In this document: positions 3,017-59,514 of the stretch, piece after piece
How positions within the stretch are numbered: position 1 is the first letter of the stretch
How the letters are laid out: each line of letters opens with the position of its first letter
Origin: Candidatus Omnitrophota bacterium
Lineage (GTDB): Bacteria > Omnitrophota > Gorgyraeia > Gygaellales > JBFMHM01
Assembly (NCBI GenBank): GCA_040753015.1
Contig: JBFMHM010000002.1
Span: forward strand, 102,111 to 166,110
Reading direction: 5' to 3'
DNA length: 64,000 nucleotides
Translations under genes and position numbers: made by a program
The notes under the pieces: model-generated
Seen by the model: the letters and a program-made list of their open reading frames with translations, nothing else
What the model was told of the DNA's origin: nothing
The model's database searches: none

Positions 3017-3024
3017 ATTCTCAT

Positions 3025-4483: not shown

Positions 4484-5287
4484 CTATACCAATAAATCTT
4501 TTAAATAATCATCGGAATTTTGAACAAAAGAAACCGGCCCTTCCGGTTCTCCTTTTATAAATTGCTGCACAAGCCCATCCTTAGAATTTCTTATTTCATC
4601 TGGCGAACCGTTAGCAATAACTTTTCCTTTATGCAGCATAATAATCCTATCGGCAATACTAAACACACTTCTCATATCATGAGTAACAACAACTGATGTT
4701 ATAACTAATTTTTCTGTTAAATCTCGGATTAATTTATCGATTACGGCTGACATTATCGGGTCTAACCCAGCTGTCGGCTCGTCATAAAAAACAACTTCGG
4801 GATCCATAGCAATTGCCCGCGCAAGCCCAACGCGTTTTTTCATACCGCCTGAAAGCTGAGAAGGCATAAGATTTTGGAATCCACTCAATCCCACAAGCTG
4901 TAATTTCATTTTTATTATAAGATCGATTATATGTGGGTCTAGCTTAGTATGCTCGAGTAGAGGAAGTGAAACATTACCTTTTACATCTAAAGAATCAAGA
5001 AGTGCTCCTGACTGAAAAAGAATTCCAAACCTCTTTCGTATCCCATCAAGCCCGTCTTCATCTAATTCATTTATATCTTTACCAAAAAAATTTACTTTCC
5101 CCTGATCTGGCTTCATTGCGCCAACTAAATGACGTAGTAAAGTCGACTTACCGCACCCAGAACCACCCATTACTACTAAAAGCTCTCCTCTATATACTTC
5201 TAAATCTACGCCGTTAAGAACAGCTCTTTTGCCAAAATATTTAACTAAATTTTCGGTTTTTATAATTATTTCTCTAACATTATTCAT
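4484..5287 (-). CDS. mlaF: MlaF, ABC transporter ATP-binding protein
   Basis: Walker A is GGSGCGKST, the ABC signature is LSGGMKKRVGLARA, and Walker B is VVFYDEPTAGLD. Confidence 0.85.
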   Translation of the reverse strand: MNNVREIIIKTENLVKYFGKRAVLNGVDLEVYRGELLVVMGGSGCGKSTLLRHLVGAMKPDQGKVNFFGKDINELDEDGLDGIRKRFGILFQSGALLDSLDVKGNVSLPLLEHTKLDPHIIDLIIKMKLQLVGLSGFQNLMPSQLSGGMKKRVGLARAIAMDPEVVFYDEPTAGLDPIMSAVIDKLIRDLTEKLVITSVVVTHDMRSVFSIADRIIMLHKGKVIANGSPDEIRNSKDGLVQQFIKGEPEGPVSFVQNSDDYLKDLLV

Positions 5288-32397: not shown

Positions 32398-32399
32398 TG

Positions 32400-34109
32400 C
32401 TATTCATCCGGGGCTGTTATTCTTACTACCTCTTCTAAAGTTGTAATGCCTTCGCTTGCTTTCTCCATACCTTCCTCTCTCAACGTAAGCATACCTTCAT
32501 CCCTGCTTATTTTTTTAATCATGTATTCCTGGGCGCCTTCCAAAACAAGATCTCTAATTTTAGGCGTCAAAATTAGCACTTCAGCAATAGCAACTCTTCC
32601 TTTATAGCCGGTATTAAAACATTGCGCGCAACCTTTTGCTCTATAGAATTTTCTTGTTGGAATTTTTTTTAAATTCAGAGACTGCATTATATCATCGGAT
32701 AAAACATATTCTTCTCGGCAACTTACACAAACTTTTCTAAGAAGCCGTTGAGCAATAATCGCAATAACAGATGAAGTAATTAAAAAGGGCTCTATGCCAA
32801 TATTGGCTAAACGCATAACAGCTGCAGGAGCTGTTGTGGTATGAACAGTAGTTAATACTAGATGCCCTGTTAACGCTGCCTTAATTGATATATCAGCTGT
32901 TTCATGATCCCTAATCTCACCTACCATAATAACATCGGGATCCTGTCTTAATATTGAACGTAGGCAGCTTGCAAAAGTTAAATCAACCTCTGGCCTTATG
33001 TTAACTTGATTTATACCTGCCAACTGAAATTCAATTGGATCTTCAACCGTTATAATATTCTCTCTTGGGGTATCAATAAACTCTAATATAGAATATAACG
33101 TTGTAGTCTTTCCTGACCCAGTAGGGCCGCAAACAATAATCATGCCATGTGGTTTTTGTGAAGACCTCTTAATTCTATCTAATGCAGTTTGGGAAAAACC
33201 TAATTTTTCAATATCAAGCTGAGCTTGCGATTTATCTAATACGCGAAGAGCAACCTTTTCCCCAAACGAAGAGGCAATAACAGAAACACGAAAATCCACT
33301 TCCCGCGTACCTATTTTTATTTTAAAACGACCGTCTTGAGGAAGCCTATGCTCGGCAACATTAAGATTAGAAATAACCTTTATCCTGGAAACAATAGGCG
33401 CAAGCATAGATTTTGGCGGAGACTCCTGCTCTTGTAAAACACCGTCTATTCTATATCGAACACGCATCCTATTTTCTAATGGTTCAATTAAAATATCTGA
33501 TGCATACATATTAACTGCTTTTTCTAAAATCATGTTTGCTACTTTTATAACCGGGGCCTCATTTATAATTTGATTTATTGTAGCCAAAGAAAAAACTTCT
33601 TCTTTCTCGGCTCTAATTAACTCAATACTCCCGTCCTTAAAACCTTCGACCAGCTCTTCTATAGCTTCTTTTGCGCTTTCTTCATAATATTGATTTATAG
33701 TAGCATTAAGTTCTGAAGGAGAAACGATAACAGGAGTTATTTGATAGCCTGTAAGACTCTTAACATCATCGATTGCGAATACATCTAAAGGATCGCTCAT
33801 TGCAAGTGTTAGAGTCTTTCCAATCAAGGATACTGGGATAATTTGATATCGATGCGCTAAATCTTTACTGATGATTTTTATAACTGACCTTTCGATTTTA
33901 ATCCGCTTCAGGTCAATAATCGGGAATCCGAGGCCTTCGCTCAAAACTGGAAATAACTCTTTTTCTTTGATCAGATTATCTTCTATTAATATATCAACAA
34001 GCCTCTTCCTTCTCTTCTTGGCTAAATCAATAGCTTCTTTTAATTTGATTTCGGAGATTAAATTATTTTTTATTAAAATCTCATAAACTCTCTGAGCAAT
34101 TGATATCAT
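32400..34109 (-). CDS. GspE/PilB-family assembly ATPase, paralog 2
   Basis: The architecture matches paralog 1 (GPTGSGKTTTLYS; CVSC ... CAQC). It is about 45% identical to paralog 1 by eye. Confidence 0.8.
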   Translation of the reverse strand: MISIAQRVYEILIKNNLISEIKLKEAIDLAKKRRKRLVDILIEDNLIKEKELFPVLSEGLGFPIIDLKRIKIERSVIKIISKDLAHRYQIIPVSLIGKTLTLAMSDPLDVFAIDDVKSLTGYQITPVIVSPSELNATINQYYEESAKEAIEELVEGFKDGSIELIRAEKEEVFSLATINQIINEAPVIKVANMILEKAVNMYASDILIEPLENRMRVRYRIDGVLQEQESPPKSMLAPIVSRIKVISNLNVAEHRLPQDGRFKIKIGTREVDFRVSVIASSFGEKVALRVLDKSQAQLDIEKLGFSQTALDRIKRSSQKPHGMIIVCGPTGSGKTTTLYSILEFIDTPRENIITVEDPIEFQLAGINQVNIRPEVDLTFASCLRSILRQDPDVIMVGEIRDHETADISIKAALTGHLVLTTVHTTTAPAAVMRLANIGIEPFLITSSVIAIIAQRLLRKVCVSCREEYVLSDDIMQSLNLKKIPTRKFYRAKGCAQCFNTGYKGRVAIAEVLILTPKIRDLVLEGAQEYMIKKISRDEGMLTLREEGMEKASEGITTLEEVVRITAPDE

Positions 34110-34553
34110 TTATTTTTTATAAAATTTGTCAATTGCATTTTTTATATCGCTAAATGTACTTACAAAAATCTGCACGCTTAATTTTGTAAGAGTTTCAATA
34201 TCTTCTACTGCCTGTAGATTTAAAGGATTTGACATTGACACAGTTAGGGTATTGCCAATCTTGTCAATTGGCATCAGGCAATACTGGCGACAAACTCTCT
34301 CTGGAATAATACTGATTATTTCAGAGCCAATTTCATAATTAGAGAGCGGTAAATAGGGATAGCCGTATTGAGTAGTTATCGCCTGAGCAATATCAATTTC
34401 TTTAGCATAACCCATATCAACTAAAACTTCACCAATTAAACCACCCTTTTGTTTTTGCAATAAAAGGGCCTCGTTTAGTTGATCCTGAGTGATAATTTTT
34501 CTTTCAATTAGAAGCTCGCCTAACTGCTTAGTAATTATTTTTCGTGATGGCAT
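34110..34553 (-). CDS. standalone MshEN-like + GSPII_E N-terminal domain protein (candidate c-di-GMP receptor)
   Basis: Two 24-aa motifs separated by 5 aa (LGELLIERKIITQDQLNEALLLQ - KQKGG - LIGEVLVDMGYAKEIDIAQAITTQ) fit the MshEN c-di-GMP-binding consensus. They are followed by a T2SS-E N-terminal domain. Confidence 0.65.
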   Translation of the reverse strand: MPSRKIITKQLGELLIERKIITQDQLNEALLLQKQKGGLIGEVLVDMGYAKEIDIAQAITTQYGYPYLPLSNYEIGSEIISIIPERVCRQYCLMPIDKIGNTLTVSMSNPLNLQAVEDIETLTKLSVQIFVSTFSDIKNAIDKFYKK

Positions 34554-42925: not shown

Positions 42926-43561
42926 TCAAGAAAAAATGTGCCGGATTATTTCATCACTTAATGCCTGCCTCGTAACAACCATTTTAATATTCTTAGTACG
43001 ATCTATTATATAAGCAATATGTTTTCTTTTTTTAATCTGTTTTAAATCGTTAGCAACAACTAAATCTGAATTATTTTTTAGTAGATCTTTATAAGAAGAA
43101 TTAATCAGCTCATCTTTATCTTTATTAACTTCTAATTTAAACTGGACTAGAAAAATTTTTGGATCATATTTTTTAATCAACCTGATAATTTTAGGTGTTG
43201 GAATGAGTTTTAAACAAAGATTATTTTTACCAGATTCTATTTTTTGTGCAGAAATTTTTTCAACCCTATAATCGCTTACTGCAGCTAGATGAATTACAGC
43301 ATCATATTTTTTTGTTTTGAGTTCTTGCTCTATTAAAGTAAACAGCTCGTCAAAATATTTAAAACGTTTAATTATAAGATTTGGATTTTTAAGGGTAAAG
43401 CTTTCAGTGACTGGGCCAAGCAATAACGTAACTTTTGCGCCTTGTTTTAGCGCAGTTTTCGTAATAGCAATACCAGTTGCGCCGCTTGAAATATTTGAAA
43501 TTACACGGACTTTGTCAATTGCAACCCATGTTGGGCCGCAAGTTATCAAAATTTTAGGCAT
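42926..43561 (-). CDS. coaB: phosphopantothenate-cysteine ligase (CoaB) as a separate gene
   Basis: It has the CoaB fold ([24 protein letters not shown]). It overlaps the coaC stop by 8 nt. Confidence 0.75.
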
Positions 43562-44129
43562 GCTTAATAATAGTGGATAAAATCAAATCGGCATCTGCCA
43601 TTGCCCCTTTACCAACAGTGCCGCAGGCAAGGCGTGAAATGCGTGGTTCAATAAAAATATATTTTCCGCCTGCTTGCCGGACAGGCAGGGGTATCTTTTT
43701 TAGCGATGCGATATTTTTTTGCATAATCTCGTTTTCCCACATATTTGTATTCATAGCAGGAGCGATTAAAACTTTAGTTTTTTTTGGCAAGGATAAAACT
43801 AATGCCGCTAATAAATTATCGGCAAAACCATAAGAAATTTTTGAGATTATATCTGCTGTGGCTGGGGCAATCACAACTAAATCTGCCCAGTTAGAAAGTT
43901 CAATATGCTGGCAATTAAATTCTGATATGGGTTTAAACATATCAGTGTAAACCGGATTTTGCGTAAGCGACTGAATTGTTAACGGAGTGATAAAATTACA
44001 CGCGTCAGGCGTAAGCACTCCCTTGACATTATAATTTTTGTGCTTTAAAACACTGATTAAATCACACGCCTTATAAGCAGCAATGCTTGCAGTTATTCCA
44101 ATAATGATGTTTTTATTACTAGTAGGCAT
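43554..44129 (-). CDS. coaC: phosphopantothenoylcysteine decarboxylase flavoprotein (CoaC)
   Basis: The flavoprotein N-terminus is IIIGITASIAAYKA. Confidence 0.8.
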   Translation of the reverse strand: MPTSNKNIIIGITASIAAYKACDLISVLKHKNYNVKGVLTPDACNFITPLTIQSLTQNPVYTDMFKPISEFNCQHIELSNWADLVVIAPATADIISKISYGFADNLLAALVLSLPKKTKVLIAPAMNTNMWENEIMQKNIASLKKIPLPVRQAGGKYIFIEPRISRLACGTVGKGAMADADLILSTIIKHA

Positions 44130-44133
44130 ATGT

Positions 44134-44382
44134 TTAAGATGGCTGGGCTATTCTATGTAAAAGCTCAGAAATAAAAGTTTGATACCTTATACCGAGCCGA
44201 TAAGCTTTATGTTTAATGTTTTCTAGGTCTTGCTTATTTACGCGAATATTTAAAACCGCATCTTTCTTCCTTGCAGATATAACACTAATAATTTGTTCGT
44301 ATTCCCGCTTATCCACAGGAACAAAATGCTCAAGATTATCTTCTATCGCCCGCTCTTCTTTTGTTAATTTAATCTTTCTCAT
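44134..44382 (-). CDS. BrnA-like antitoxin (RHH/CopG-like, DUF4415-type)
   Basis: The C-terminal GIRYQTFISELLHRIA resembles the BrnA G.GYQT.IN.ILR.Y motif. It overlaps the upstream toxin by 14 nt. Confidence 0.55.
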   Translation of the reverse strand: MRKIKLTKEERAIEDNLEHFVPVDKREYEQIISVISARKKDAVLNIRVNKQDLENIKHKAYRLGIRYQTFISELLHRIAQPS

Positions 44383-44659
44383 GGTTTCTCCTGTTTTTGT
44401 AAAATTTCGTTAACTTTCTGCTTGGATATATCGTCTTCAAAAATATTATTTCGCCATCTATTACATACGGCACAGCCCACAGATAACCTTTATACTGATA
44501 AATAAGAATTTTCTGATTTTCTCTATTTGGATGCCTACGTATGTCTATTAGCTTTGAAGCAATGATTTCTTCAAACGAAACGCCGCGCGTTTGCTTAAGA
44601 CGCTCGCTCTTTAATTGGCTCCATCTAATATCTTTCATACATTTATTTTGTATATACAA
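44369..44659 (-). CDS. BrnT-like toxin (DUF497, RelE-fold ribonuclease)
   Basis: Conserved elements are W....NE.NQ.KHGVSFEE and RIISAR-like IFLKTIYPSRKLTKFY. The toxin-before-antitoxin order matches BrnTA. Confidence 0.55.
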   Translation of the reverse strand: MYIQNKCMKDIRWSQLKSERLKQTRGVSFEEIIASKLIDIRRHPNRENQKILIYQYKGYLWAVPYVIDGEIIFLKTIYPSRKLTKFYKNRRNHEKD

Positions 44660-44695
44660 TTGTATTATACAAAATAAATAAGTTGTGTCAAGATA

Positions 44696-47600
44696 TTAAT
44701 GATTTAACGCTTCGATTTGGATGAGGCTTAGATCAATGCCGCCAAGGTTAACGGCGCCTTGCGATGGCTGACTTAATGCCTCGGCTGGGCTTTCGCCAGT
44801 GTAAACTCTTGCTCTCTCCTCTAGCGACAATATCGTGCCTGCACGATCGGTTATTTCATCGGAGGAAGCGCCGGCGCGCTGCAATAGCGCCTCGACTGCT
44901 TGATTCCAGTCGGATTGCCTCTTGACTTCTTGTTTTGCCATTATTGAAATAATAACATCTGAAATAAACAATACTATATTACTTATGCCAATAAATCCTA
45001 AAACAATTGGCATCGCAGAAAAAGAAAAACCTAAAGCTATCCCGCCCACCGTTAAATTAGCAAACGGCCCAGCTAATAAAGTAGCTACTTTTTTCCAAGT
45101 TGAAGCTCCCTCATAATTAATATCTGCGCTAGACCAAAGGTTGATCGAATTCACTTTTAATCCAAATAACTTCGCAGTTAAAATATGAGCTGCCTCGTGT
45201 AAAGGCAAAGCAACTACAAAAGCGCTAAACCGTAATAAATTACCCCGCCCGCCCCCCTCTCTTAATAACGCTGCTGTAATTGAACGCGTAGGCTCTCTTC
45301 TATCTACAAAAATAACACCCTTTTTCTTAAAAAAATCATAAAGCTTCTGCTCAGTATCGTAAATCACGCCTAACCTTTCATTATTACTATTTCTATCTTT
45401 ACGAATCGTAGCATTTCTAATTTTATTACCGTTTAAATCGCCATGAAACATTTTTGCGGAAAAGAGATCTGCGTCGGAGAGATCTGCAAAGGAAAGATCT
45501 ACACCACGAAGGTCTGCCTCGGAGAGATTTGCCTTAAAAAGGCTTGCGGTCGAAAGGTCTGCATTGTAAAGGATTGCGCGGGTAAGTCTTGTATTAAAAA
45601 AGCGTGAATTACTAAGGTTTGCTCCGGTAAGGTTTGCATTAAAAAGGTTTGTACGGGAAAGATCTGCGGAGGAAAGATCTGCACCGATAAGATTTACGTA
45701 GCTAAGAATTGCGTTAGTAAGAATTGCACGGGAAAGCTTTGCACCAGAAAGATCTGCGTAGCGAAGCTTTACGCCGGAAAGATCCTTACCAGAAAAATCA
45801 AATTTTGAAAGATCAAGCCTATAAAAAACAGCATTTTTAAAATAAGAAGCTTCGGATAAACTCTTCAAAGCCCTCACAAATTCATCATTAACTACAACTG
45901 TTTGGCCATCTTGAAGAGGCGAGCTTCTAAGATAATCTTGCTTGGCTTGATTAAATTCATCTATTTTTTGTTCTAAAGTTTTACTTGAATCGTTTAAAAT
46001 TTCTGTGAGCTGTTGTAATGTTTCCGCCCAGCCTTCTGGCGAAACGGCTGTAGGCCCGGCAGCTGACGGATCTGCTGGCGGAGTTACATCCGGAGGTGCT
46101 GGTGGCTGTTCATCCTGAGCCTGTCGAAGGACTGGCGCGTCAGCGGCTGGTGCTACAGGCGCAGGAGTTCCAACTTCAGACTCAATTACCTTGCCATCTT
46201 TATCTACTCTTTGCCCTTGCTCGTTAACAAAAATAATACCACGTTCTTGAGTTAAATATCTATATAATCTATCCATATCAAGAGTAACTTCTTTTAAACT
46301 TTTATAGCTTCCTGAATCCAATATCATCGCGTCTTGAATCTTATCTTTATCTAAGTCAGAAAATAACATCCTTGCTCCGGAAAGGTTTGCGTTGGCAAGG
46401 CTTGCGCCGGTAAGGGTTGTACCGCAAAGGTCTGCATTGGAAAGGTTTGCATTAGTAAGGTCTGCGCCAGTAAAATCTGCACCGCGAAAGTCTGCGTAGG
46501 AAAGAACTGCGCCGCGAAGGTCTGCGCCGGAAAGGTCTGCGTTGCGAAGGTCTGCGTAGGGAAGAATTGCGCCGCAAAGGTCTGCGTAGGGAAGAATTGC
46601 GCCGCGAAGGTCTGCGCCGCGAAGGCCTGCGTAGGAAAGAACTGCACCGGAAAGGTTTACGCCGGAAATGTCTGCGTTGCGAAGGTTTGCGTTGCAAAGG
46701 TATGCGTTGCGAAGGTTTAACCTTGAAAGATCTAACCTATAAATAGTACTACCTCTATTATAAAAACATTGTTCTAAACCTTTTATAGCGGTTATAAATT
46801 CAAAATTAACTGCAAGCACCTCACCTTCACTAAGAGGCGAACTTGCAAGAAAATCTTGCTTAGCTTGGTTAAACTCATTTATTTTTTGTTTTAGGGTTTT
46901 ACTAGTATCGCTTAAAATTGCTGTAAGTTGTGTAAGCACACCATCCCAACCTTCTGGCGATACGGCTGTTGCGTCATCTGCAGCTGGCGGATTAGCTGGA
47001 TCCGCTGGCGGAGCTGACGCAGGTGGCTCACCTCGTGGAACCGCAGATGCATCAGCGGTAGGCGCAGCTGCAGCTGAAACAGCACCGTCAATCACATTAC
47101 CATCTTTATCCACAGCTTGCCCTTGCTCGTTAACAAAGATAACACCCCGACTGGTCAGATAATCATACCGCTCTTGTTTAGTTGAATAAACATCATCCAA
47201 TCTTCTCCAAGTCCTAGCATCAATAAATAGTAAAATACCATTAATTTTATCAGTGTCTAAATCACTATAAAACATAACTGTTTGAGAAAGGTCTGGCCCC
47301 ATCTCTTTTTTTCTAGAAATGTATTGCGCGTAAGAAAATATTGCTCCTGATCCCCGACGTGCTATTATTTCAGCATTGCGTCTTAAATACACGTCCTCGG
47401 AAAGATCAAATGGTGCGAAAAGTCTTACACCAGAAATATCCTTTCCAGAAAAATCTAACCTAGAAAGGTCGAGTTGAATACAAATGGCGCTAGCTTGTCT
47501 ATTAAAATACCATGTCCGCTCTAATCTTCTTAAGCCATCCGCAAACGCATCATTAACTTTAAATGTTTGGCTAGATTGAAAAGGAGAGCTTCTAAGATAA

Positions 47601-50600
47601 TCTTGCTTGGCTTGATTAAATTCATCTATTTTTTGTTCTAAAGTTTTACTTGAATCGTTTAAAATTCCTGTGAGCTGTTGTAATGTTTCCGCCCAGCCTT
47701 CTGACGAAACGGCTGTAGCCTCTGCCGCAGGCCTCGCCGTTTCCTGGCGGGCTGGTGACGATGGATCTGCGGGCGGCTCGGCTGGTGGCGGTGCAGGCGC
47801 GTCAGAGGCTGGCGTAGCTAATTTTTCTCTTAAACTAGCAATTAATTGTTCATTATTCGCGCTTTCGCCAGATTCTTTCAGTAAACGAATAAGCTCATTA
47901 ATTACTGCTTGCTGTTGTAATTGCTCTAGAGTAAAACCATTATTAAGAAGCATTAAAATAATTTTAGCAGCCTTATCATCTGTTAGATTCGTTTCGTCTG
48001 CAATAGTCTCTAAAAAATTACCCATTTGTCTATTTACGCTATCCAATAATGCCATATCTATACCTTTTTCTTTTAATAATTGTGCCTGGTTTTGGACAAT
48101 AGCAGTATAGGCGTTGACTTTAAGTAAAGGTTCACTATCAGGAGTTCTTATTGCCATAGCAATAGCATTTGCAAATTCACCTGTTTCTGCACAAACTTGG
48201 ATAATTAAGTCAGAAGCTAAGAGTCTTTTGTAATCGTTACTACTGTCATTGGGAATTTCTTCTGCCGCAGCGCGTGCATTTTTAAGGTTTCTTTCTATTT
48301 TTCGTTTTGGTATTTTTGCTTTTATCTGAACTCTAGCAACAAGAGAATAGGCATTGGTTTTATAAAAAGGCTGGTCCTGATTATCGGGAATTTTTTTTAT
48401 CAAATTAATAATCAATCGCAAAATATCTTCTACTTCATTCATCGGCCTACCTATTTTTGCCTGGGTTTCGGCAATTATAAGAAGAAGGAGCGCTTTCCAA
48501 TATTCACCAGGTGCGAAAGTTCTTTCCGTTAACGTAGAAGCCAATCGCAAAGTATCTTCTACTTCATTCATTGGCCTACCTATTTTTGCCTGGGTTTCGG
48601 CAATAAATGTATAAGCTCTAATTTGGTCATCATAAGTTGCATCTGCATATCTTGTTGGAAGTTTTTCTGCTATATCAAGAGCTTTATTAATGTTTTCGAT
48701 TATTTCTTCTGTTGGCCTACCTGCTTGTGCTTGAGCTTGAGCAATAGAGGTATAGGCTTTAATTTGTGCCCAAGGGTCATAAATGCTTATTTCTTCTACC
48801 ATAATAATAGCCTTGTTAAGACTAGTAGATATTTCATCTTCCGGGCTACCTATTTCGATTTTAACTTGGGCGATAAATGCTTGGACGGCAGCTTGCGATG
48901 CACGATTAAGCGCAGTTGCAGCGATATCGGCTTTATTAATGTTTTCGATTATTTCTTCTGTTGGCCTACCTGCTTGAGCTTGGGCAATGAGTGCATAGGT
49001 CATAGCCTTATCAGGATCATCATCCTCCATCCTTATTACCAGGTTGAGAGCATCATTAAATCTGTTTAACGTTATAAAAGTTTCGATAACAGTGATGGTG
49101 GCTTTTTCTTTTTGGGAAGAATCATCAAATCTTTCTGCTGCTGCGATAGAGGCTAAACGTAAAGCTAAATCTTGCGTATGAATAGTTTTCAAAATTTCTG
49201 GAGTTAATACTACTGGTTCTCTTGCAGGCATTCCTGGATCTGCCGGCGGTTCGTCTAAAGGCGCTTGCGTAGCGGCTGATGCAACTAGCCCAGGAGGAGC
49301 TGGCGCGTCAGGGGCTGGTACTACAGGCGGTGTCGTCGGTTCGTTGCCAAACAAAATTGGAATTCGCGTGGATCTTGGAAAAGTTGGGCTGTCGCCTGTA
49401 CTAGGCGTAAGCCCGCAACTTACTTCAATCGCAGTTTTTGAAACACCTAATTCTCTCATTAAAAAATTAGCCAAAATGCCTTGTAACTGAGAGTGGCCTT
49501 GCAATGCTTTAAGCTGTTCTGTTGCAGCTTGAATAAATGCGGTTTTAATTGATGCGTCTGATTGTTGCGGCTCTGCCGCCTGCCCAGCACTTTGAAGCCT
49601 TGCGTGTTGTTCAGAAAAAAGCGTATGCGCCCGGCCAATAACATAATTAGAAACTCTTACGCCTGCTAACGACCCAGCCAAAACACCAGCCAAACGTTGC
49701 GCCACAAGAGGAACAGCGCTTCCAGCTCCGCCGTTTGGCGCAGTTGGTGAAGCAACACTTACAAAACGTAAAATTGCATCAGGCAGCGCACTTAATGCTT
49801 CTCTTTTTGCTTTTTCTATTTCAAGCATTGTTGCTCCAACTGGCACGCCGATAACTAAAGTTGCAGCCGGCGCAGTATCTGGCGTTTCTACTTCTCCGAT
49901 ATCAACATCCGCAGCAAGTTCAACACCATCTGTCGGTTCAAACCTCACAGCTACTTGAACCTCGGGAATTTCGTCAGTTGCTGGAACTGTGACAGTTTTT
50001 GCATCACGATTTGCTAACTCCACTCTAACTGCTCGCGCTCGTTCTGGAGTTAACTGCTCGAACGTTCTAGGAGCCTGTGGAGTAACGCTAGTTCCACCGG
50101 GTGCCATGCCTACCGGCAGGCAGGCACTAGGATCAGGCTCTGGCCTTGGCCCAGAGTCAACCCATTTTACTTTTTGCCGCATATCAGGGTCAGCTAAAAC
50201 AGTATCTGTTGCATTGGGTGAAACCAAAAACCATTTGCGGCCGCTAATCTCTCCGTCGCAAGCCACAGCGCCTGCTTCAATATCTCTTGCTAAGGCGCAA
50301 TGCCCCAACATCACAACTAAATTATTTTTTTCGCCGGAAAAAAATAAATCTTTAGCTTGTCTGCCAGCATATCTCTGGCAAACTAACGAACCATTATTTT
50401 GATAAATCAACTGGCTATCGCCTGAAACTCTGTCAATTAACTCAAAACTAAAATTTGCATCAGACGGTTTATACAAGCGAATAATCAGCTCTGAATTATC
50501 TTTCTTTAAATATACCTCTATTTTACCGTGTTCATCCTCTAAAGTTTTTCTAATATAAATAGCATTTGGCTCTTCTCTATCCCTAACTTCATCCTGCCTC

Positions 50601-53600
50601 CACTCTAAAGCCTTAAAAATTGCTTCAACTTTCTTTTCTTCAACTTCTTGATAACCGTCAATAGGAATATCGACAAAAAGCTTAGTTGTATTTTGCTCTG
50701 TCTGGTTTGCAAAACTAAATGTTGCGCCTAATTTGCGCAATTCATTTCTAACCCTAAAGTAAGGCTCTAATGCGTGATATTCTTTTCCTTGCATACATAA
50801 ATTACCTAAGTCGCCTTCGCCTGCCTCGAATAAAGCAGTTTTTAACCACTTACGAAGTGGTGCAGAAAAACTTATTTCTAAACGCAAATGATTGCCAAAG
50901 CTAAGCCAACTAACAGTAATTCCGCTATCTGCCAACTCACTTTGCCAACGCTCTATATCATTATTGTCAATTTGTCCAGCCTCTGGTGGTTGGACAAATT
51001 GATCCTGAGCACCGTCGAAGGATCTTAATCTTACGCCAAGCTGAGGCTGGCGATAAACTTCAGCCAATAAGCGGCCTTCTTGATTAAATGCGTGGCGCAT
51101 TGCGGTTTCTTTTTTGGCAAGCGTCAACCACTGGCTAACTAATTGCATTGCAAATCTAATTTGTTGTTTATTTTTATCTGGCTTAGGCACGCTAGTTTTT
51201 AATCTTTGCTTTTCTGCATTCCATTCTCTATCAGGCCTGCAAAAATTAATATCACTAGTTAAGAATGTCTCTGTCCCAGCCATAGCCAAAGCTTCACCTC
51301 TTGTTTCTTCAATAGCCATCCAAGTAATTTCAAGCGCCTCGGTTACAGCTTCTTGGGTAATCTCACTAATTGGCCTTTGGTACAGCTCTTCTAAATTCCT
51401 CATCTGCATTGCTTCAACTTCTGTCATCTCTTGGCCAACAACCCGAGCAACTGCGGGGATAAATTTAAACCTTAAATCTCCGTCCACAACAAAAACCTCA
51501 ATAGCATCACCATCATTCCAAGCATCTCGTTCATATAATCCACTGGCAAATTTAGTTAAATTTTCCTTAAACTTATCCAACACATTAGCAAGCGGCCGCG
51601 CTCCTTGGCCTGCCTCAAACCCAAGCTTGTAAAAATAATCTAGCACTGCCGTCTTATGTTCCGGGCTAACTCTAACCTCAATTGGATAAAACTTATTTCT
51701 TGCATCTTTATAAACCCAATTTTTATAGGGCTTTAGTTTTGCTTCTGCCATTGCCTTAAACATTGCCTCATCCATAAATTTAAACGGAACTATTTTATCA
51801 AGCCGCGCTAAAAATTCCGGACGGTATTTATATTTATGATAAGCTGATATTTGTGCATCTAATTCGTCGTAAAAACGCGTAAGCGCTTCTGAGTCTGTTT
51901 GTGCTGCATCAAGTGCCTTTTTGTATTGCTGGTAAGCGTCTGGCCCACCTGTTTGAGGTGTTAAAAAACGGCCTGTTGCCGCGTCATAAGTTTCTTCAAC
52001 GCCGCCGTTTGAGGTAAAGATAATAATACACTGGCTAAAAGAAACTGTGTTGCCTTTTGAGTCAGTTAAACGCCCATCGTCGGTAAGAGACAATAAAAGC
52101 ATCAATATTTCTTCTTTGTCAACGCGATGCAATTCATCAAATACGATTACACTTTTTGGGTTGCGTTTTACTTGACTGGTCAACCAATTTTCTGAATCAT
52201 CATGCCCAACATATCCGGGCGGTGCACCGATTAATCTCGTGCTAGAATCCATATCAGCCATAGGCACATGAATATAATTATACCCTAACTCGCTAGCTAC
52301 CACCCTTGCTAATTCTGTTTTACCCACACCTGTTGGCCCAGAAAATAAAAAGCTGCCTACAGGTTTATTCGGTCGCTTTAAACCGGATTCAGCACGATAA
52401 ATTGCACTAACCACTAAATCGACCGCCTCATCTTGGCCAACTAAACGGGCTTTAATACGCCCTTTTAAACTTAACAAATCACTAGTCTTTCTCTGGCTAA
52501 CAAGCAAAGAATCAACGCCGCGTTTAATTAAAAATGAGCGCACATCTTCTATTGTCGGGGTAAGCTTTACATCCTGCCTGTCAACACTGCGCCAACGCCT
52601 AATTTCGGCAAGTGATTCTGCTTGTTTTACTGGCTGGCTTCTTCGTTTTGCTGCCTTTATTTTTTCAGCTAAGACACGAGCAATATTACGTTTTTCTTTT
52701 ACCGGTTGTTTTTGTAAACCTATCTCTTTTGCTTTTGCACTATAATGCTGATCGAGAAATTCAGCCAATAACATCTTATGGTCTTCGTCAGCTAAGGCTA
52801 TAGCAAATAACGACAAAGCCTGCTCCATTAATTCAAAAGGCATTAAATCAGTTGTTTCTGGCAAAGCCCCAGTTATCGGCGATATATGCTTTGCATAATA
52901 CGCCCTTCGTAACACAAGCCACATATCTTCAACTTGCCCAGCCTCTGGCGCTTGGGCAAGTTGATCTCGAGTCCCTGCGAGAGATCTTTCTAATAAATCA
53001 ACACGGCTAAACCATTGTTCATAAAGCGGGTCTCTTAACACAGCCTCTGAACTAGTTGATAGAATTAATCTCCCCTTCTGCTCATCTTTAAACGCGCTTA
53101 AGAATTGCCCTAAGTGGAACTCCGCGCCAGTTGGTAAACCATCTCTGCCTTGAGCGCTAATACTAGCTTTTTGAAAACTATCTAAGTCCAAATAAACAAC
53201 CGTGCGTATTCCTTTTTTCTTATCATCGTCGGCAATTGCATCTAAAAGCCTGAGCACAGTTGCCTCAAACTTTCCTGCCAAACTAAATGTAGTTGCAAAA
53301 CTAGAAAACTTTAAACTAAGAACTCTGACATTTTCTTGGCCATTCAATTTTCCCTCACAAGCTAAGCGGCTATATTGCTGGACTAATTGCTCGGTTGCTT
53401 TTTGGTTTTTTGCCCAAAGAAGAGGAAAATTTCTGCGTGCTTGAGCTTGAATTGATAAAACGCTTACCATTGTCTCTGGGTTAATACTTTCTTCGGGAAT
53501 TCTTCCTTGGCTAGAAAACGCCGTCAGATTTACCACCATTTCATTTAATTCTTTTTCTTGCTGTTTTATCTTATCAACTGAAGCTTCATCGGCATCTTCT

Positions 53601-56600
53601 GGAATGGGTAGGGAAATTTTAAGTTTATCATTATTCCAAGCAGCATTAGGCGGAACCTGTGCAACAGGTGTTGGCAAAAGCGCTTGCTTTGCTTCTAAAT
53701 TAGAAGCAGCTAAAATTGCTCTTGTTGTTGGATGAAGCGCCTCTTGCGCTTGTTGCCTAACTACTTCACCTACCGGCTCAGTTAATTTAAAAGTAATTTT
53801 TCCTTCACTATCAGCACTAACTGAAATTTGAGTTCCCTTGGGATATTTTTTTGCAACTAAAATTTCTGCTAATTGCGAACCAATTAAATTATCAATAGCA
53901 CGAGCCATAGGACGCGCGCCATTAACCGCGTCATAGCCTGCCTTAAGAATTACCTCTTTTGCCGCATCATCAAAATTAAGAACATAACCTTGGTTAGCCA
54001 GTTTTTCTTTTAACATATCGAGGATAAAATCGCGGATTTTTTCAATTTCTTTTTTGCGCAAACGCTTAAACACCAAAATTTCACCGATACGGCCTTGCAT
54101 CGAATTTATAAAATAACGATTAATTCTTTTCCTTATTTCATCTTGTATGCTTTCTTCCATAACATCAAGTAACTGACTACGGCTTGCACTACTTAAATCT
54201 TTACCAGCTTCCTCGCTATGCCTATTTACTTGGCTAATTAAGCGGCAAACACCCAGCCTTTCTTCCCTTGCCTTAGACGTCATTACCTTTAATTTTTGAA
54301 TATAATCCCATAGGCCGCCAAACGCCTCTTCGCATTGCCTGCGTTCTTGCGGCAGCAATCCAAATTCATCAAGCCTAGCAAATCTTCCAGCTTCACCTTG
54401 TTTGGGAAATCGATCTGGCACACAATCAGGTTTTTGCGCCCGCAAATATGCCTTTAATGCCGAATCTCTATTTGCAACAAGCGGGCTAATCCAAAATTCC
54501 TCAATATTATCCAAAACATCTTCTAACGTCAGGCGTTCAGGAAGAAAATCTAATTGGACGCTGTTTAATGCCCTGCTAAATACACCGCCCGGTTTAAGCG
54601 TTTCCTCAATAAGTTCAGCCACTTCATTAAACACATCTTTATTATATGCACGAAGCTGAATAGCTGCCTGCTGCAACCTTTGGCGCTTAGCAGCTGCAAC
54701 ACGTCTTCCCATTTCAGGATCCATTGCTTGCAACTCTTTCTGTGGTTCATCTTCAATAGCTACTTCTTTACCAGCTTTTTTGTATTCATCAATTTGCTTT
54801 TCTTTTTCTGTAATTTGACTCTGCAATCTAGTCCTTTCAGCATCGACACTGGCCCTGTAAAAAGCAATCTTAAGCTCATATAATTCGATATATTCACCAA
54901 ACACATCAATAAGTTGCTTAGTGTGTTTAATATGTTCTAAATTTAGCTTAACATTTTGTTCAAGAGAATTCTTGTATTCAGCTTGCTGGCGCTTTAAAAG
55001 CACGAGCAACTGCTCGGCTTTTCTATGCTCGTCGGTAATTTCAACCCTAAACCATGAATAATCACTTGCCGCAAGCTCTGTCTCGTCTTGCGCCTGAGTA
55101 AACTCCTCATCACTCATTAAATCTATTGCATCCATTGCCCGATATGCGTCGTAAATTTCCGGAGTCATGCCTAAATTTGAAGTCATTGCAATTAAGTGAT
55201 TAGTTGCCGATAAAGTTTCTCCTGTTGAACTTTGTGTTGTGCCTGTATCAAATAAATCATATAAATTTTCTAATACATCCGGATGCGCCTTTTCAAGTTC
55301 ATCCAATAAAAGAACACCAATAGGCGAGGCTCGTAAAATTTGCACTAATCGCCCGCCATTTTTATCATAACCAACATAACCTTGCGGTGCGCCCATAAGT
55401 TTTGTTTTAGCAAATTCATCTTGCAGCTCTGCCATATCAATGCGGCCCATTTTGCCGTCAAAAATAAGCTCAGCAATTGCTTTTACAAGCTCGGTTTTTC
55501 TACGCCCGTTGGGCCTGCCAACATAAAAACACCAATTGGTTTATTTGGCTCTTTTTGTCCGTTAACAAATAAACGAATTTTTGCTAAAATGGCATCGACT
55601 ACATGTTCGTGGCCAACATAACGCTTTGCTAAATTTTCTTTAAATCTATCAACGCGCGCTCTAATATCACCGGTTAATAAGCTAACTGTAGTTTGCGCCT
55701 CTTTTGCCAGCGCAGTTAAAACTTCTTCTTCGCTAATTCTTACGGATGGGCCTAAAGTTGTATCTACATCGCTTGCGCCCGCCATTACCATTACCCAATA
55801 ATCCAGGCGGCCAGTTAAAAATTCAACAAGCTCTGGTGTGTTAGCCTGCTCTAACTCGCCAATTAAAGCCAAGGCTCGGCTTCCGGCATAAGCTCTATCT
55901 AAATTACTCCTGTATTCTTGTTTTTTATTTTTATCAACTAAAAGTTTCTGAATTAAATCTATTGCAATTTCCCTTTCTGAAGCTTTAGGCAAGAATTTTT
56001 TAGTATAACCCATAATCCGCTTTAAAAATTCAAACGCATCATCGCTTTCAATTTTTAAATTTAAAAGCTCGTTATGCACGGTTTTAAACCACGGTAACCC
56101 CTCTTCTAAAAGCCGCAAAATTTCATCTGCCTCTTTTTCGAATTCAGGAGAGCTAGATAGCTCGTAACGTTGAGGATACTCCATAATTTGAGATATTTCT
56201 TTCCATTTGTTTCTAGGAAATACCGCCTGAATTGTTTTAGGCTCACCGCCAATAATTACAGGAATTGGGCTTTTAAGAAGCTCATCTAATAACCACTCTA
56301 AGCGCGAGCCAAGCTTAAACTTCAAACTCAAAATTCCCGCGTATTCTTCAGCATCAATATAAAAAGCTAAATTACGGCGCGTGCCTTTTTTTTCTGCATC
56401 GTGATACACCTTGCGCATATTGCTGACAAAAGCGCGAACAACCTTTTCAAAACCATCTGCCTGCAAAAACACTCCGCCGGCTAATAATTTTTTAATATCT
56501 AATTTTAAAATTTCTAACTTTTGTAAAGAAACTGGCAATGGGCTGTCATCAAGGCTTGCTTGATAAGCCAAAGAACGTATTGTCTGCTCTACTTCTCTCG

Positions 56601-59421
56601 GATGGCCGATTAAAATAATATTATTATTACTTGTATTTTTAATTTCATCTAATCTATCTACAAAACCTTGATCTGGCCTTTGGTGTAAACTTAAACTTTG
56701 CGAAGAGCCTTCGAATGTTTCTATCTTGGAAAGATAAGCCATCAAGTTTTCTTCAGTTTCTCCTTCTCTGCCATCGTCTGGATATATAGGAGAATAAAAA
56801 TTACCGCCTACTAGAGGCGCGCCAATCATTGCTGCCATAGCAGCAAAAACATCATCGCCAGAAGAGGCATCACCAAAAAACTTAAAATAAAACCAGCGAA
56901 ATAAATATGCGGCCGGAATTAATAATAAAGGTAACAATAAAGATTTTAATATTGTGGTTTTTGCAGGGCCACTGCCTGGCCTTGGCGATTTTGGACCTTG
57001 ATCATCAGTCTCTGTTTCTGCTGCTTTTTTACGCAATGCGTCCCGTTGTTCTCTAGCGTCTGCGCTATAATCATGATGATGATCAGCATGAACAGTTCCA
57101 TCAGCGTGGCGATGCTGGCCTTCAGGAACACCGTGATGATGTGGATGTCTTGCGCCACTAACGTTACCATCGTGATCGCGGTGAATATGCTTTACAAGCA
57201 TCCTGTTATGTATTCTACCTATCCTAGCCTCTACTTCATTTCTCTTGCCAGCCTTAATTCTAGGCACTCTCGTGCTATAGCCATAACGGGTTTTTTCTAT
57301 TAAGCCTTTTTTAGAAAGTGCACGTTTAATAATTTCCTTTGCTTTATCTTTATCGTTCTCGTCTAACTTTCCTTCACCAATTGCCTGCTCTGCAATTTCA
57401 TCAGCCAACCTCTCAATTACTTCCGGATTATTTGTTCCGTTCTTTCGTAATTTACCATCATTTAAAATATTTAAAAGTCCTCTTGTAATCCAAGTGCGGA
57501 AATTATGCTCCATCGTAAGATCGCTGATATCACTATCTTTATCAGCTTCTTCAACTGACGTATTAATTTCATCTAAGATTTCATTTAACAGTTCCTCATC
57601 GCCTTTATCATCATCTTCATCTTTATCATCTTCATCTTCATAATCATCGCTATTTTTACGGCTATCTTCTATTTGTGCCAACCGCCACATCGGACCACAA
57701 CTCGCTCCTATTGAACCCTCGCTAACATCTACATCTGTATCTTCAGCGATTTTGTTGCCCCTTTTTTGCTCCTCTACTACTCTATTATGCGCTTGTATCC
57801 AATTTAAACCTTGTTTGCGATAATATATTTCGCGTTGTTCGTGCAACAAAACATCAGTATCTAAGGTACTTTGAAAACCAACTATACGCCAAACATTATC
57901 TGTACCTTTAAAATTAATTGCCTGTACGCCATCATCTAAGTTAATTGCCCATCTTTTGAGCACATCAATAATTCTTTGCGCGTCTTGATCCCTAACATTA
58001 TCATTAATCGCAATAATTCGGTTTCCCACATCATCTGTATTAGTTTTAACTGCCCCCAGCTTATCAAGCTGTGTAATACAATATTCAACAATCTCTCGAT
58101 TACTAGCGTTTTGTGATAATTCAGGAACTTTCTTACTTCTTGCCAAAACTCTTAGAATTCTTAAAAGATTTTTTAGATTCTTTACATCAGATACTTCTGC
58201 GCCAATATCTTCTGGTTGCCCAATGCTTACCGTAATTGTAACTGGCACCCTGCCTGCCTCTCCCGCTGTTGCTAGCTGTGTAGGAATTTCTCCTGTTGGC
58301 GCAAAAAGTACACCGCCTGAGGCATAGGTGCGGCGGATTTTATGATTTATCGTAGGGGCGAAACCATGTTTTCGCCCATTAATTATAGGGCGATTACGCG
58401 GAATCGCCCCTACAACATCAACCAATTTGTATTCGCCTTTTGTTGAGTTTAGATAAGATTTGTAGATTTGTTCTGGTTTAAACTTAAGGTTGTTGGTTTT
58501 TTGGTAGGTTTTTATGAATTGCTCTAACTTTTCGCTTTTCGCTTTACTCTTTACGCTTTTTTTGTACCATTGTGCAAAAATGAGTGCTTGATATATTTGT
58601 CTAAGTGGTTCATAGGCTTTGTCTTGGTTTACTCGTTGAGTTAGTTCTGGGAGTATTAGTTGTTTTAGATGAGATTCACAATATTCCTGTAGTTCCTCAG
58701 TTCGTCTGTTCTTCAGTTCGTCAGTTCGTTTGTCATTGGAAATTGGGATTTGGGATTTCTCAAGGTATTCGCTTTCTAGAAGCACCTTGAGCGTTGCTTT
58801 AACTATTGTTATTGAGCTATCTGTCTCATAGACCCTTGCCTCATCTGGCACTATCCAGACACGAAAGGTAGTTGGTACTTTGTAGTTAGTAGTTTGGTTT
58901 TGTTGTTTTGGTCCTAATTTTAAATTTTGAGTTATAGTTTTACCTTTTTCGTTTTGAGTTTTTACTTCCAAAGTTTTGGCTTTAGTAAATACTTTATCCC
59001 AATAGGTTTTAGCATTTTTACCATAACCGGGTAATAATTCAAAGGCTGTGTCTTTCTTAAGCTTTAAATCTAATACTAAGAGCGCTTTACCTAAATCAGT
59101 ATCAGCTATTGTATTGCCGATGATTCTACTTGGGTCATTAGGGTTTAGATTAACCCAAAGATCTTTGTAGTCTATAGATAGGCTAGTAAAGAAATAATCT
59201 AGAAGTTCTTTGGTTTTAAGCTTCTTTTGTTGTTCTGAGAGGTTGCGAGGAAGAAAGTTGAAATTAAAATTAAAACCTGAATTTAGACTAAGCGAAACAA
59301 ACGAGGCGTTTGGGTCATGCACTTTTAGGCTAACAACTTGGCCAAAGCTAATACTCTGGCAAAGAAAGGTAAATGCCAAAAATAGACAAAAAATCCTCTT
59401 TATATGGTTTACTTTAATCAT
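44696..59421 (-). CDS. giant multidomain protein, about 4,900 aa as a single reading frame interrupted by one frameshift near 55.49-55.50 kb
   Basis: ORF 55483..59421 ends ...FMLAGPTGVEKPSL* and ORF 44696..55450 starts MGRIDMAE.. LMGAPQGYVGYD. Restoring one G (GTAGGAAAAACC) gives the contiguous ClpB-D2 sequence [30 protein letters not shown]. The domain content is listed in the findings. Confidence 0.7.
45923..46052. repeat. intragenic direct repeat of ~130 bp, near-identical (3 mismatches) to 47591..47720, with a diverged third copy at ~46845..46975
   Basis: I aligned the two copies by eye (agcttctaagataatcttgcttggcttgattaaattcatctattttttgttctaaagttttacttgaatcgtttaaaat...ccgcccagccttctg.cgaaacggctgtag). 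Each encodes SPEGWAETLQQLT.ILNDSSKTLEQKIDEFNQAKQDYLRSSP. Confidence 0.8.
46340..46760 (-). repeat. pentapeptide-repeat coding block (15-nt periodic tandem units, A(D/N)LxG-type)
   Basis: The protein reads NLRNADISGVNLSGAVLSYAGLRGADLRGAILPYADLCGAILPYADLRNADLSGADLRGAVLSYADFRGADFTGADLTNANLSNADLCG. Two further blocks lie at ~45430..45860 and ~47270..47520. Confidence 0.8.
55493..55503 (-). other. single-nucleotide frameshift site inside the Walker A codons (observed GTAGAAAAACC; GTAGGAAAAACC needed for GPTGVGKT)
   Basis: The downstream frame is open through the site and encodes ...[29 protein letters not shown]. The upstream frame terminates 3 codons later. Confidence 0.7.
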
Positions 59422-59494: not shown

Positions 59495-59514
59495 CCTGCC
59501 TGCCGGCAGGCAGG
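59495..59514. promoter_or_regulatory. perfect 20-bp GC-rich palindrome (CCTGCCTGCC|GGCAGGCAGG) in the AT-rich hflX-to-giant-gene intergenic region
   Basis: I read it directly in the sequence. It is not followed by a T-run on the minus strand, so it is not an obvious hflX terminator. It lies about 75 nt upstream of the giant gene ATG. Confidence 0.3.

Follow-up and report, generated by a model that had tools for sequence, protein, structure and literature searches.

A reconstructed, frameshift-interrupted giant gene of Candidatus Omnitrophota with Clp-type, pentapeptide-repeat and M50-like modules in the frame of a mosaic protein family

Described systems and the giant gene

Long mosaic proteins with signal peptides and transmembrane (TM) helices, among them "multi-enzyme" chains, are documented for the Omnitrophota in two sources (10.1101/2023.11.21.568195; 10.64898/2026.06.07.730766). 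The present work concerns a 64-kb window, i.e., the whole stretch of 64,000 nucleotides analysed (contig JBFMHM010000002.1), and in particular two adjacent open reading frames (ORFs) on its minus strand, ORF1 and ORF2. With high confidence we regard them as one ancestral gene with the anatomy listed in Table 1, interrupted by a frameshift and belonging to a protein family with a conserved N-module and a C-terminal domain that opens with GGID. This N-module/GGID family is multi-copy, mostly confined to Omnitrophota and apparently undescribed. Enclosed by a secretion signal and a membrane anchor, the merged product would hold two motors of the Clp type, three beta-helices and the fold of a site-2 protease, and the head and tail modules would offer a sequence handle on how and why ultra-small, possibly host-dependent bacteria build and target mosaic giants. 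The merging of two public protein records into one gene appears to be new, as does the recognition of the head-and-tail frame together with a recurrent M50-like anchor module. The cargo combination likewise appears to be new, since it was found nowhere else in searches able to detect it: neither by phmmer, by word-indexed searches and by scans of GTDB and JGI data, nor in any of the 86 related ORFs from 79 family loci. The word index does not contain ORF2 itself, so that negatives obtained with it carry less weight. An earlier note on this DNA had also considered the combination novel, and it had missed both the family of mosaic proteins with conserved ends and the shortened C-terminal family domain of this member.

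The giant protein resembles the Omnitrophota giants of West-Roberts et al. (2023) in coming from the same phylum, in having a signal peptide and TM helices, and in its tiled unrelated domains and internal duplication. With 4,908 amino acids (aa) it falls well below the class of at least 10 kaa (thousand amino acids) counted in 10.64898/2026.06.07.730766, and the type II/IV secretion-like locus that precedes the 2023 giants (10.1101/2023.11.21.568195) is missing upstream of it. Term searches in the former source gave no mention of ClpB, pentapeptide or M50, in the latter only an AAA_5 domain is named, in the legend of a figure, and the N-module/GGID frame is described in the available parts of neither.

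The ATPase units are closest to ClpB/Hsp104 and ClpA/ClpC, since both align to the D2 ring of these proteins (Walker A, which unit 1 has only in the repaired frame, Walker B, GYVG, sensor-1 and GARP) and share the ClpB_D2-small domain with them. In contrast to ClpB-type proteins, the giant protein lacks the N-domain, a working D1 P-loop and the middle domain of D1, its scores lie far under the equivalog cut-offs, and two D2 units stand in tandem in a single membrane-anchored chain of 4.9 kaa. That a D2 ring suffices for disaggregase activity is known from Skd3. Human CLPB/Skd3 combines a single ClpB-D2-type module with a non-ATPase helical region, and its PDB chains are matched at E-values of 1e-27 to 1e-32; the giant protein differs from it in the two D2 units, in that no ankyrin repeats were detected, and in the unrelated remainder of its architecture. 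FtsH, by analogy only, also unites a membrane anchor, an AAA+ motor and a HExxH protease-type domain in one polypeptide. However, the ATPase of the giant protein belongs to the Clp D2 clade and not to the classic clade of FtsH, its protease-type domain is intramembrane and M50-like instead of a soluble M41 domain, and its parts stand in the opposite order, thousands of residues apart.

With the site-2 proteases RseP, SpoIVFB and MjS2P, the giant protein shares HExxH, situated within a TM helix, as well as GP.(A)NL, and its invariant Asn and Asp align near their NxxPxxxLDG region, whereas its domain of about 110 aa has three TM helices and neither a canonical LDG nor PDZ or CBS domains. The canonical A(D/N)LXX repeats are those of pentapeptide proteins such as Qnr, MfpA, HetL and PipB2, which is a generic repeat match only; unlike in these proteins, the beta-helices are flanked by a private conserved helix and a tail of about 70 aa, and the arrangement is triplicated. 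The family as a whole recalls MARTX and polymorphic toxins, again by analogy only, in its constant ends and interchangeable enzymatic middle. It differs from these toxins in having no sequence relationship, repeat-in-toxin regions, autoprocessing protease or secretion partner, and its cargo includes housekeeping enzymes.

Gene reconstruction and the N-module/GGID family

ORF1 corresponds to NCBI MEW5758409.1 (1,298 aa, "hypothetical protein AB1755_02935") and ORF2 to MEW5758408.1 (3,593 aa because of another start, "pentapeptide repeat-containing protein"; P0023 in the search library). Both are annotated by NCBI as separate genes on a 260-kb contig of one Candidatus Omnitrophota metagenome-assembled genome (MAG), which agrees with the lineage guessed in the earlier note. 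The ORF coordinates, the strand and all sequence strings quoted there were found in the DNA, including HEAAHILTAKLFG in the C-terminal hydrophobic segment. The frames of ORF1 and ORF2 are jointly open only between 55485 and 55541 (56 nt). Within this stretch the ORF1 frame reads ...NKPIGVFMLAGPTGV-EKPSL*, the protein ending in ...NKPIGVFMLAGPTGVEKPSL*, and the ORF2 frame, which is open from 55541, reads KTELVKAIAELIFDGKMGRIDMAE. Homology to Clp ATPases pins the shift to one codon inside the overlap: the Walker A site is GTA-GAA-AAA-CCG as assembled, where GTA-GGA-AAA-ACC is expected, and AAA+ unit 2 of the same protein holds the intact equivalent codons GGT GTG GGT AAA ACA. Insertion of one G at about 55500 (GTA-G[G]A-AAA-ACC) gives GPTGVGKTEL and a single stop-free frame of 4,908 codons. 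Between 55480 and 55520, the repaired reading is GTAGGAAAAACC as opposed to GTAGAAAAACC in the assembly, and the peptide across the repaired junction is GPTGVGKTELVK / AGPTGVGKTELVK.

The NCBIfam ClpB model is matched with positions 527-605 at the end of ORF1 and resumes at position 608 in the ORF2 frame; because the model is co-linear over the break, the frameshift interrupts one continuous domain. The G+C content at third codon positions (GC3) is 0.31 on either side of the junction, and a stop-free run of 3,584 + 1,312 codons in DNA of 34-40% GC is not due to chance. Independent evidence of one former gene is provided by the family itself, as the N-module lies in ORF1 and the C-terminal GGIDL motif in ORF2. 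The proposal of a single gene of about 4,900 codons is thus borne out by the length of the repaired frame, the co-linearity with ClpB and the distribution of head and tail over the two ORFs, although "one gene" is a reconstruction, since the frame is broken as assembled. The frameshift may be an error of the assembly consensus or a very recent mutation.

The family was delineated by a locus scan with a seven-sequence N-module alignment, two short peptide patterns and tblastn confirmation, after which 79 loci were fetched. Among the GTDB species representatives, at least 371 matches were confirmed, nearly all of them under Omnitrophota titles; many genomes have several, and tandem arrangements occur. 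A protein search gave 22 hits, BLASTP of the N-module gave E-values of 1e-29 to 1e-174 against 21 proteins, and tblastn of the N-module against the 79 loci gave 1e-40 to 4e-50. The common plan consists of a Sec-type signal peptide, the consensus of which ends ...GFAQ, an N-module of about 370 aa with the invariant motifs WVNL.P, LKKD, WIVP, LKVLLE and LRQ.Y, a variable middle, and the C-terminal domain opening with GGID(L/F). Head and tail were found in one frame in 49 of the ORFs lying wholly inside the fetched loci, with the N-module at the start and GGID(L/F) 105-135 aa before the end; these ORFs range from 800 to more than 3,700 aa, and a minority of complete members have no C-domain. Neither head nor tail matches any Pfam model, the N-module matches no NCBIfam model either, and the modelled head has no significant match among solved structures.

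The middles of the family contain TIM, enolase, PGK, PPDK, iPGM, aldolase and GAPDH, as well as radical SAM, GHKL ATPase, methyltransferases, GNAT, NUDIX, ADP-ribosyltransferase (ART), M23 and a receiver domain. Most relatives have no internal TM helix, which rules out that the cargo is always flanked by TM helices. Members of 2,000-3,700 aa (L014, L022, L054, L075, L040 and others) carry glycolytic sets or radical SAM behind the Sec-type signal, and such a signal on chains of glycolytic enzymes, mostly without an internal TM helix, makes for a puzzling location. In about 20 of the 79 loci (L006, L008, L017, L022, L027, L044, L054, L058, L075 and L077 among them), the family gene stands in the core-genome, origin-proximal order dnaA-dnaN-gyrB-gyrA-glmS-rsmI-[family gene]-pyrR-pyrB-pyrC. 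No Clp gene was found in the fetched loci. Tandem pairs of family genes on the same strand occur in L040, L043, L068, L074 and L077; in L043 a GGID motif lies mid-way in an open frame of 3,747 aa, which may represent two fused or read-through genes.

Table 1. Positions of the giant gene, its reading frames and its modules in the window, from the N-terminus to the C-terminus of the reconstructed protein.
Feature	Residues (aa)	Position	Strand	Basis
Whole reconstructed gene		44696..59421	minus	4,908 codons plus stop once one base is restored
ORF1		55483..59421	minus	1,312 aa; frame differs from that of ORF2
ORF2		44696..55450	minus	3,584 aa; frame differs from that of ORF1
Frameshift site		55499..55501	minus	Gly codon of GPTGV-G-KT short of one G
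Sec-type signal peptide (MIKVNHIKRIFCLFLAFTFLCQSISFG)	1-27	59341..59421	minus	positive n-region, then hydrophobic core
Family-defining N-module	28-395	58237..59340	minus	tblastn-confirmed genomic matches (371)
Variable region	396-821	56959..58236	minus	acidic DE-rich at ~590-612, His-rich at ~745-785; read from translation
TM helix 1 (TTILKSLLLPLLLIPAAYLFRWFYF)	822-846	56884..56958	minus	Kyte-Doolittle 1.89 over 19 aa
Putative degenerate D1-like region, unit 1	925-1230	55732..56649	minus	NNNIILIGHPREVEQ (aa 931-945) in the place of the P-loop
AAA+ unit 1, D2 large subdomain	1294-1436	55115..55542	minus	Walker A (frameshifted), LLLDELEKAH, GYVG, TSN
Helical insertion inside unit 1 D2	1437-1756	54155..55114	minus	320 aa, E/K/Q/L-rich
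Unit 1, D2 small subdomain	1757-1874	53801..54154	minus	ClpB_D2-small E 2.8e-18; sensor-2 GARP present
Region before unit 2, possible D1 remnant	1958-2250	52673..53551	minus	HMMER block of 3.8 bits, insignificant, D1 register
AAA+ unit 2, complete D2	2353-2652	51467..52366	minus	AAA_2 E 2.4e-30, full model positions 1-166
Orphan region	2700-3100	50123..51325	minus	no Pfam, NCBIfam or PADLOC match
Pro/Ala-rich low-complexity region	3101-3400	49223..50122	minus	GC 0.48, GC3 0.27, native-like
About seven helical repeats of ~45 aa	3401-3870	47813..49222	minus	repeats visible by eye
Module 1: Pro-rich linker, conserved helix, decayed short pentapeptide stretch, conserved tail		47078..47812	minus	protein alignment, DNA repeats
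Module 2: linker, helix, ~24 pentapeptide units, tail		46163..47077	minus	alignment, 15-nt DNA periodicity
Module 3: linker, helix, ~29 pentapeptide units, tail		45248..46162	minus	profile matches, alignment, DNA repeats
3-TM peptidase-M50-like domain	4726-4845	44888..45247	minus	HEAAH, AGPFANL, SN...SD, SDW
C-terminal tail (ESPAEA...NLGGIDLSLIQIEALNH)	4846-4908	44699..44887	minus	stub of the family C-domain

Modules of the giant protein

A Pfam search of the corrected translation returned two AAA_2 domains, ClpB_D2-small and Pentapeptide above their cut-offs, as the earlier note had expected. AAA_2 matches the large subdomain of unit 1 with E 5.8e-34 (117.9 bits, cut-off 27) and unit 2 with 106.2 bits, and ClpB_D2-small scores 66.2 bits against a cut-off of 21.9 in unit 1. 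Among PDB sequences, the large subdomain of unit 1 aligns with ClpB D2 at E 1.5e-57 and unit 2 with ClpB/ClpC at 1e-49 to 1e-50. In unit 1, LLLDELEKAH is the Walker B motif, GYVG the pore loop and TSN sensor-1. All motifs of unit 2 are present (GPTGVGKT, VIVFDELH, GYVG, TSN, YRPEFLARLD and GARP), its small domain aligns to ClpB 732-846, and the second complete D2 module seen earlier is accordingly found with every motif in place. However, the ClpB equivalog TIGR03346 is far from being reached, with 171 and 196 bits as opposed to 1,232 and matches in D2 positions only, and the ClpA and ClpV equivalog cut-offs likewise lie far above the scores of both units. By these profile comparisons, both units are predicted to be Clp-type modules and not ClpB orthologues. 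PADLOC gave generic AAA+ matches only and thus no evidence for a defence system.

The long helical stretch that had been taken for a linker behind the first module lies, in fact, within the first D2: it forms the gap between two ClpB D2 alignment blocks, between AAA_2 and ClpB_D2-small, and it may form a coiled coil. ClpA and ClpC carry a ClpP-docking loop, the place of which the insertion presumably occupies; no IGF/IGL motif was seen in its 320 residues.

A degenerate D1 domain had also been claimed for unit 1, and this holds weakly. The P-loop of D1 is replaced by HPREVEQ in unit 1 and by AKNQKAT in unit 2. Pairwise BLASTP aligns the D1-like region of unit 1 with the D1 P-loop of Thermus thermophilus ClpB in the right register, at an E-value of 0.001, and one PDB alignment (6lsy_A) runs on through it; for the region before unit 2, such comparisons yielded no significant match. 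On the other hand, the D1-like regions of units 1 and 2, each searched alone, have no PDB match, they are not similar to each other, and the single-sequence AlphaFold2 model of aa 880-1306 has a predicted local distance difference test (pLDDT) score of 38 and is unusable.

The N-terminal part of the protein agrees with the earlier description, as the signal segment, the acidic and His-rich stretches and the second TM helix were all located (the last is TM helix 1 in Table 1). By hydropathy, hydrophobic segments are confined to aa 7-25, aa 823-841 and the M50-like block. The signal peptide is predicted to be cleaved. No Pfam or NCBIfam family was found in the variable region, and the AAA+ modules come directly after TM helix 1.

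Between the second ATPase and the beta-helices, residues 2700-3400 remained unmatched in Pfam, NCBIfam and PADLOC, and a query with aa 2650-3400 found nothing in the word-indexed search of 5.8 billion proteins, a weak negative because of the missing ORF2. The same applies to a query with the C-terminal 219 aa in that index. The Pro/Ala-rich linkers proposed earlier are present, as are helical repeats, two DNA repeats of which (D3 and D5) are 96-97% identical; these match no Pfam repeat family, so that their assignment to HEAT or TPR finds no support there. The GC content is raised in this gene, for which a foreign origin was considered and rejected as the main cause: GC3 is 0.26-0.35 as compared to 0.26 +/- 0.02 in the neighbouring genes, a near-native value, from which it follows that most of the rise is due to amino acid composition.

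The three tandem modules occupy the C-terminal approx. 1,000 residues, each ending in a tail of about 70 aa. They are accompanied by DNA repeats of 187 nt with 72-91% identity and by 33 copies of a 15-nt period. The whole C-terminal segment matches Pfam PF00805 with E 1.1e-67 and 223.5 bits (cut-off 20.2) in eight stretches. NCBIfam pentapeptide matches comprise the Alr5209, HetL, PipB, PipB2 and Qnr models, of which only Alr5209, a bare 113-position repeat model, lies above its cut-off (164 as opposed to 125 bits). Modules 2 and 3 are thus read from their sequences as strong candidates for pentapeptide beta-helices. All three modules have the linker, helix and tail claimed for them, but the pentapeptide region of module 1 is short and decayed.

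The C-terminal hydrophobic segment had been called M50-like. Its scores stay below the Pfam gathering scores for M50 (25.5 and 27.2 bits, respectively), DUF3267 (22.4 and 27.1) and M50B (21.4 and 26). An exhaustive phmmer search against 1.8 billion representatives gave ten relatives of the domain besides the gene itself, however; five of them pass the Pfam M50 cut-off, two of these with CBS domains, and hhalign of a profile of the closer relatives with a profile of those five proteins gave 98.5% with E 2.8e-15. The putative zinc site contains HEAAH and no LDG; close to the LDG position stands an Asp that is invariant in the subfamily (SDW/GDVW), a candidate third ligand. By these profile comparisons, the block belongs to the M50 superfamily. 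The module recurs in the very large proteins P0024, P0026, P0029 and P0030, always after "TPSITA", and the 5,218-aa P0030 holds three copies of it. Such sharing is evidence of module shuffling among giant proteins. Another module, "AYTHAGAT...HDLRHL.EP.Y.H", is common to P0024 and P0002, the latter a paralogue from the MAG of the window.

The tail with ESPAEA...NLGGIDL fits the family consensus SSPAEE...GGIDF, but the stop follows 13 residues after the motif, and only the first approx. 25 residues of the family C-domain are kept. Relatives run on for 105-135 aa past GGID, and the domain hidden Markov model finds nothing of the missing approx. 105 aa in any frame of the window. Beyond the gene, a perfect TTGACA-16-TATAAT sigma-70 promoter lies at 44691-44664, 5 nt past its stop, and drives two overlapping small ORFs at 44140-44691 on the minus strand, one of 89 aa (MKDIRWSQLK..., no Pfam match) and a CopG-type antitoxin-like one of 82 aa. 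The pair is probably a type II toxin-antitoxin cassette, situated where the family C-domain should continue.

Proposed function, alternatives and genomic surroundings

The explanation which in our view accounts best for these observations, and which we hold with moderate confidence, is that of one frameshift-interrupted Omnitrophota family gene for a membrane-anchored, ATP-driven unfoldase scaffold. In such a scaffold, the N-module would be exported and TM helix 1 would return the chain to the cytoplasm, where the AAA+ modules would find ATP and could oligomerise into rings, threading polypeptides or remodelling them at the inner membrane. Rigid spacers or binding surfaces may be provided by the repeat regions and beta-helices, and the C-terminus would be held by the M50-like bundle, which may also act on substrates as an intramembrane protease. 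That unfolding and proteolysis are mechanistically coupled is a doubtful extension of this explanation, and the "unfoldase/protease mega-machine" of the earlier note is likewise read from domain content.

A number of points weigh against a functional scaffold. With its frame broken and its C-domain cut short, the gene may give no protein whatever. No orthologue with an intact version was found, as scans of GTDB genomes and JGI metagenomes for close relatives of the D1-like region gave none. The first D2, described earlier as canonical, is supported by the AAA_2 and ClpB_D2-small profiles, but its Walker A motif is complete only once the missing G is restored, and it reads INSM at the position of the RPEF arginine, which we take to be the arginine finger of the D2 module. 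Since the family strings together unrelated enzymes, the co-occurrence of AAA+, pentapeptide and M50-like modules need not mean that they cooperate. In M50 proteases of the RseP type, the HExxH helix runs from outside to inside, an orientation that poorly fits all-cytoplasmic cargo unless there is a further TM segment. In addition, most relatives of the M50-like module carry QExxH instead of HExxH, which hints at an anchoring role over catalysis, and the module may serve mainly as a membrane anchor.

The alternative that survives best is a freshly inactivated pseudogene, in which the one-base deletion is real, no full-length product is made and the loss of the C-domain is a second lesion; we consider this a tentative possibility that is to be taken seriously. 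Through the frameshift, Walker A loses its invariant Gly, and the missing base belongs to a GG pair and not to a long homopolymer. The rest of the window is tightly packed and has no other obviously broken gene, hence the assembly is not generally error-ridden. At the other end, the C-domain falls far short of that of the relatives, and the promoter and toxin-antitoxin-like pair directly at the stop suggest a rearrangement of the 3' end. However, the gene has a single frame break and zero in-frame stops over 14.7 kb, so that any decay would have to be extremely recent. The loss of the C-domain need not inactivate the protein, because some complete relatives also do without it, and a single-base consensus error is possible in a MAG.

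According to a further explanation, head and tail form a lineage-specific device for export, display or delivery, and the middle consists of independent passengers, in this case chaperone-type ATPases and DNA- or protein-mimicking beta-helices with a site of action beyond the cytoplasm or inside a host or prey cell. It is unlikely in our estimation, but has several observations in its favour: in relatives, unrelated enzymes are enclosed by this head and tail, in most cases with no TM helix in between; modules are exchanged among giants, as seen for the M50-like one and for that common to P0002 and P0024; and PipB and PipB2, effectors of type III secretion, are among the pentapeptide matches. 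The lineage has also been proposed to live as predators or episymbionts (10.1101/2023.11.21.568195). On the other side, no dedicated secretion partner is conserved beside the family genes in the 79 loci, where the recurrent neighbours are those of the dnaA-dnaN-gyrB-gyrA-glmS-rsmI and pyrR-pyrB-pyrC order. Moreover, enzymes that depend on ATP or carry Fe-S clusters should not function once exported by Sec, and the TM segments of the giant protein, which most relatives do not have, can keep its ATPases cytoplasmic. A combination of both ideas, which we regard as quite a long shot, would make head and tail an Omnitrophota-wide system that exports, displays or delivers cytoplasm-type enzymes as mosaics, with the giant gene as its membrane-integrated, ATP-powered member, a Clp motor fused to an intramembrane protease fold, processing other proteins or moving them across or within the envelope.

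It is improbable that the locus consists of two functional cistrons, ORF1 giving an exported N-module with the TM helix and a D1-like stub, and ORF2, re-initiated 32 nt downstream, giving a cytoplasmic, C-terminally anchored protein with the first ATPase dead and the second active. The separate NCBI records, the ATG of ORF2 32 nt past the ORF1 stop and the completeness of AAA+ unit 2 would allow this, but the split lies inside a P-loop and not at a domain boundary, no Shine-Dalgarno-like sequence precedes the ATG, and no relative is split in this way, 49 complete ones having head and tail in one frame. Hardly credible, finally, are programmed ribosomal frameshifting, for which there is an A5 run but no X XXY YYZ heptamer at the site (GTA GAA AAA CCG) and where a -1 slip would produce GPTGVEKT or GPTGVRKT, both devoid of the P-loop's invariant Gly, and chimeric mis-assembly at the junction or the internal repeats, since the 187-nt repeats could confuse an assembler but the junction is co-linear with the ClpB model and uniform in GC3.

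The single frameshift-interrupted gene that we favour is preceded by hflX, miaA and a TPR/PMT_2 gene. A gap of 170 nt separates it from hflX and contains, at 59495-59514, a G+C-rich hairpin with an 8-bp stem (CCTGCCTG-CCGG-CAGGCAGG); a T-run on the coding strand is absent, and hexamers weakly resembling a promoter are located upstream of the hairpin. Downstream follow coaC, coaB, mreBCD, pbp2 and rodA, and then, more than 10 kb away, a pilus/type II secretion cluster. CoaBC is fused in most bacteria. Here, 42926-44129 on the minus strand holds one ORF for coaC (Flavoprotein, 191 aa) and another for coaB (DFP, 211 aa), overlapping in ATGCCTAA; natural translational coupling is a likelier reading of this than an error. 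At 30700-34553 on the minus strand, two adjacent paralogues of the PilB/GspE ATPase type, both full-length (565 and 569 aa), are preceded by a stand-alone ORF of 147 aa that contains only MshEN and followed by genes for an HD-GYP response regulator, a PilC-like protein and pilins; a GGDEF/GAF/HAMP protein is encoded just upstream of this group.

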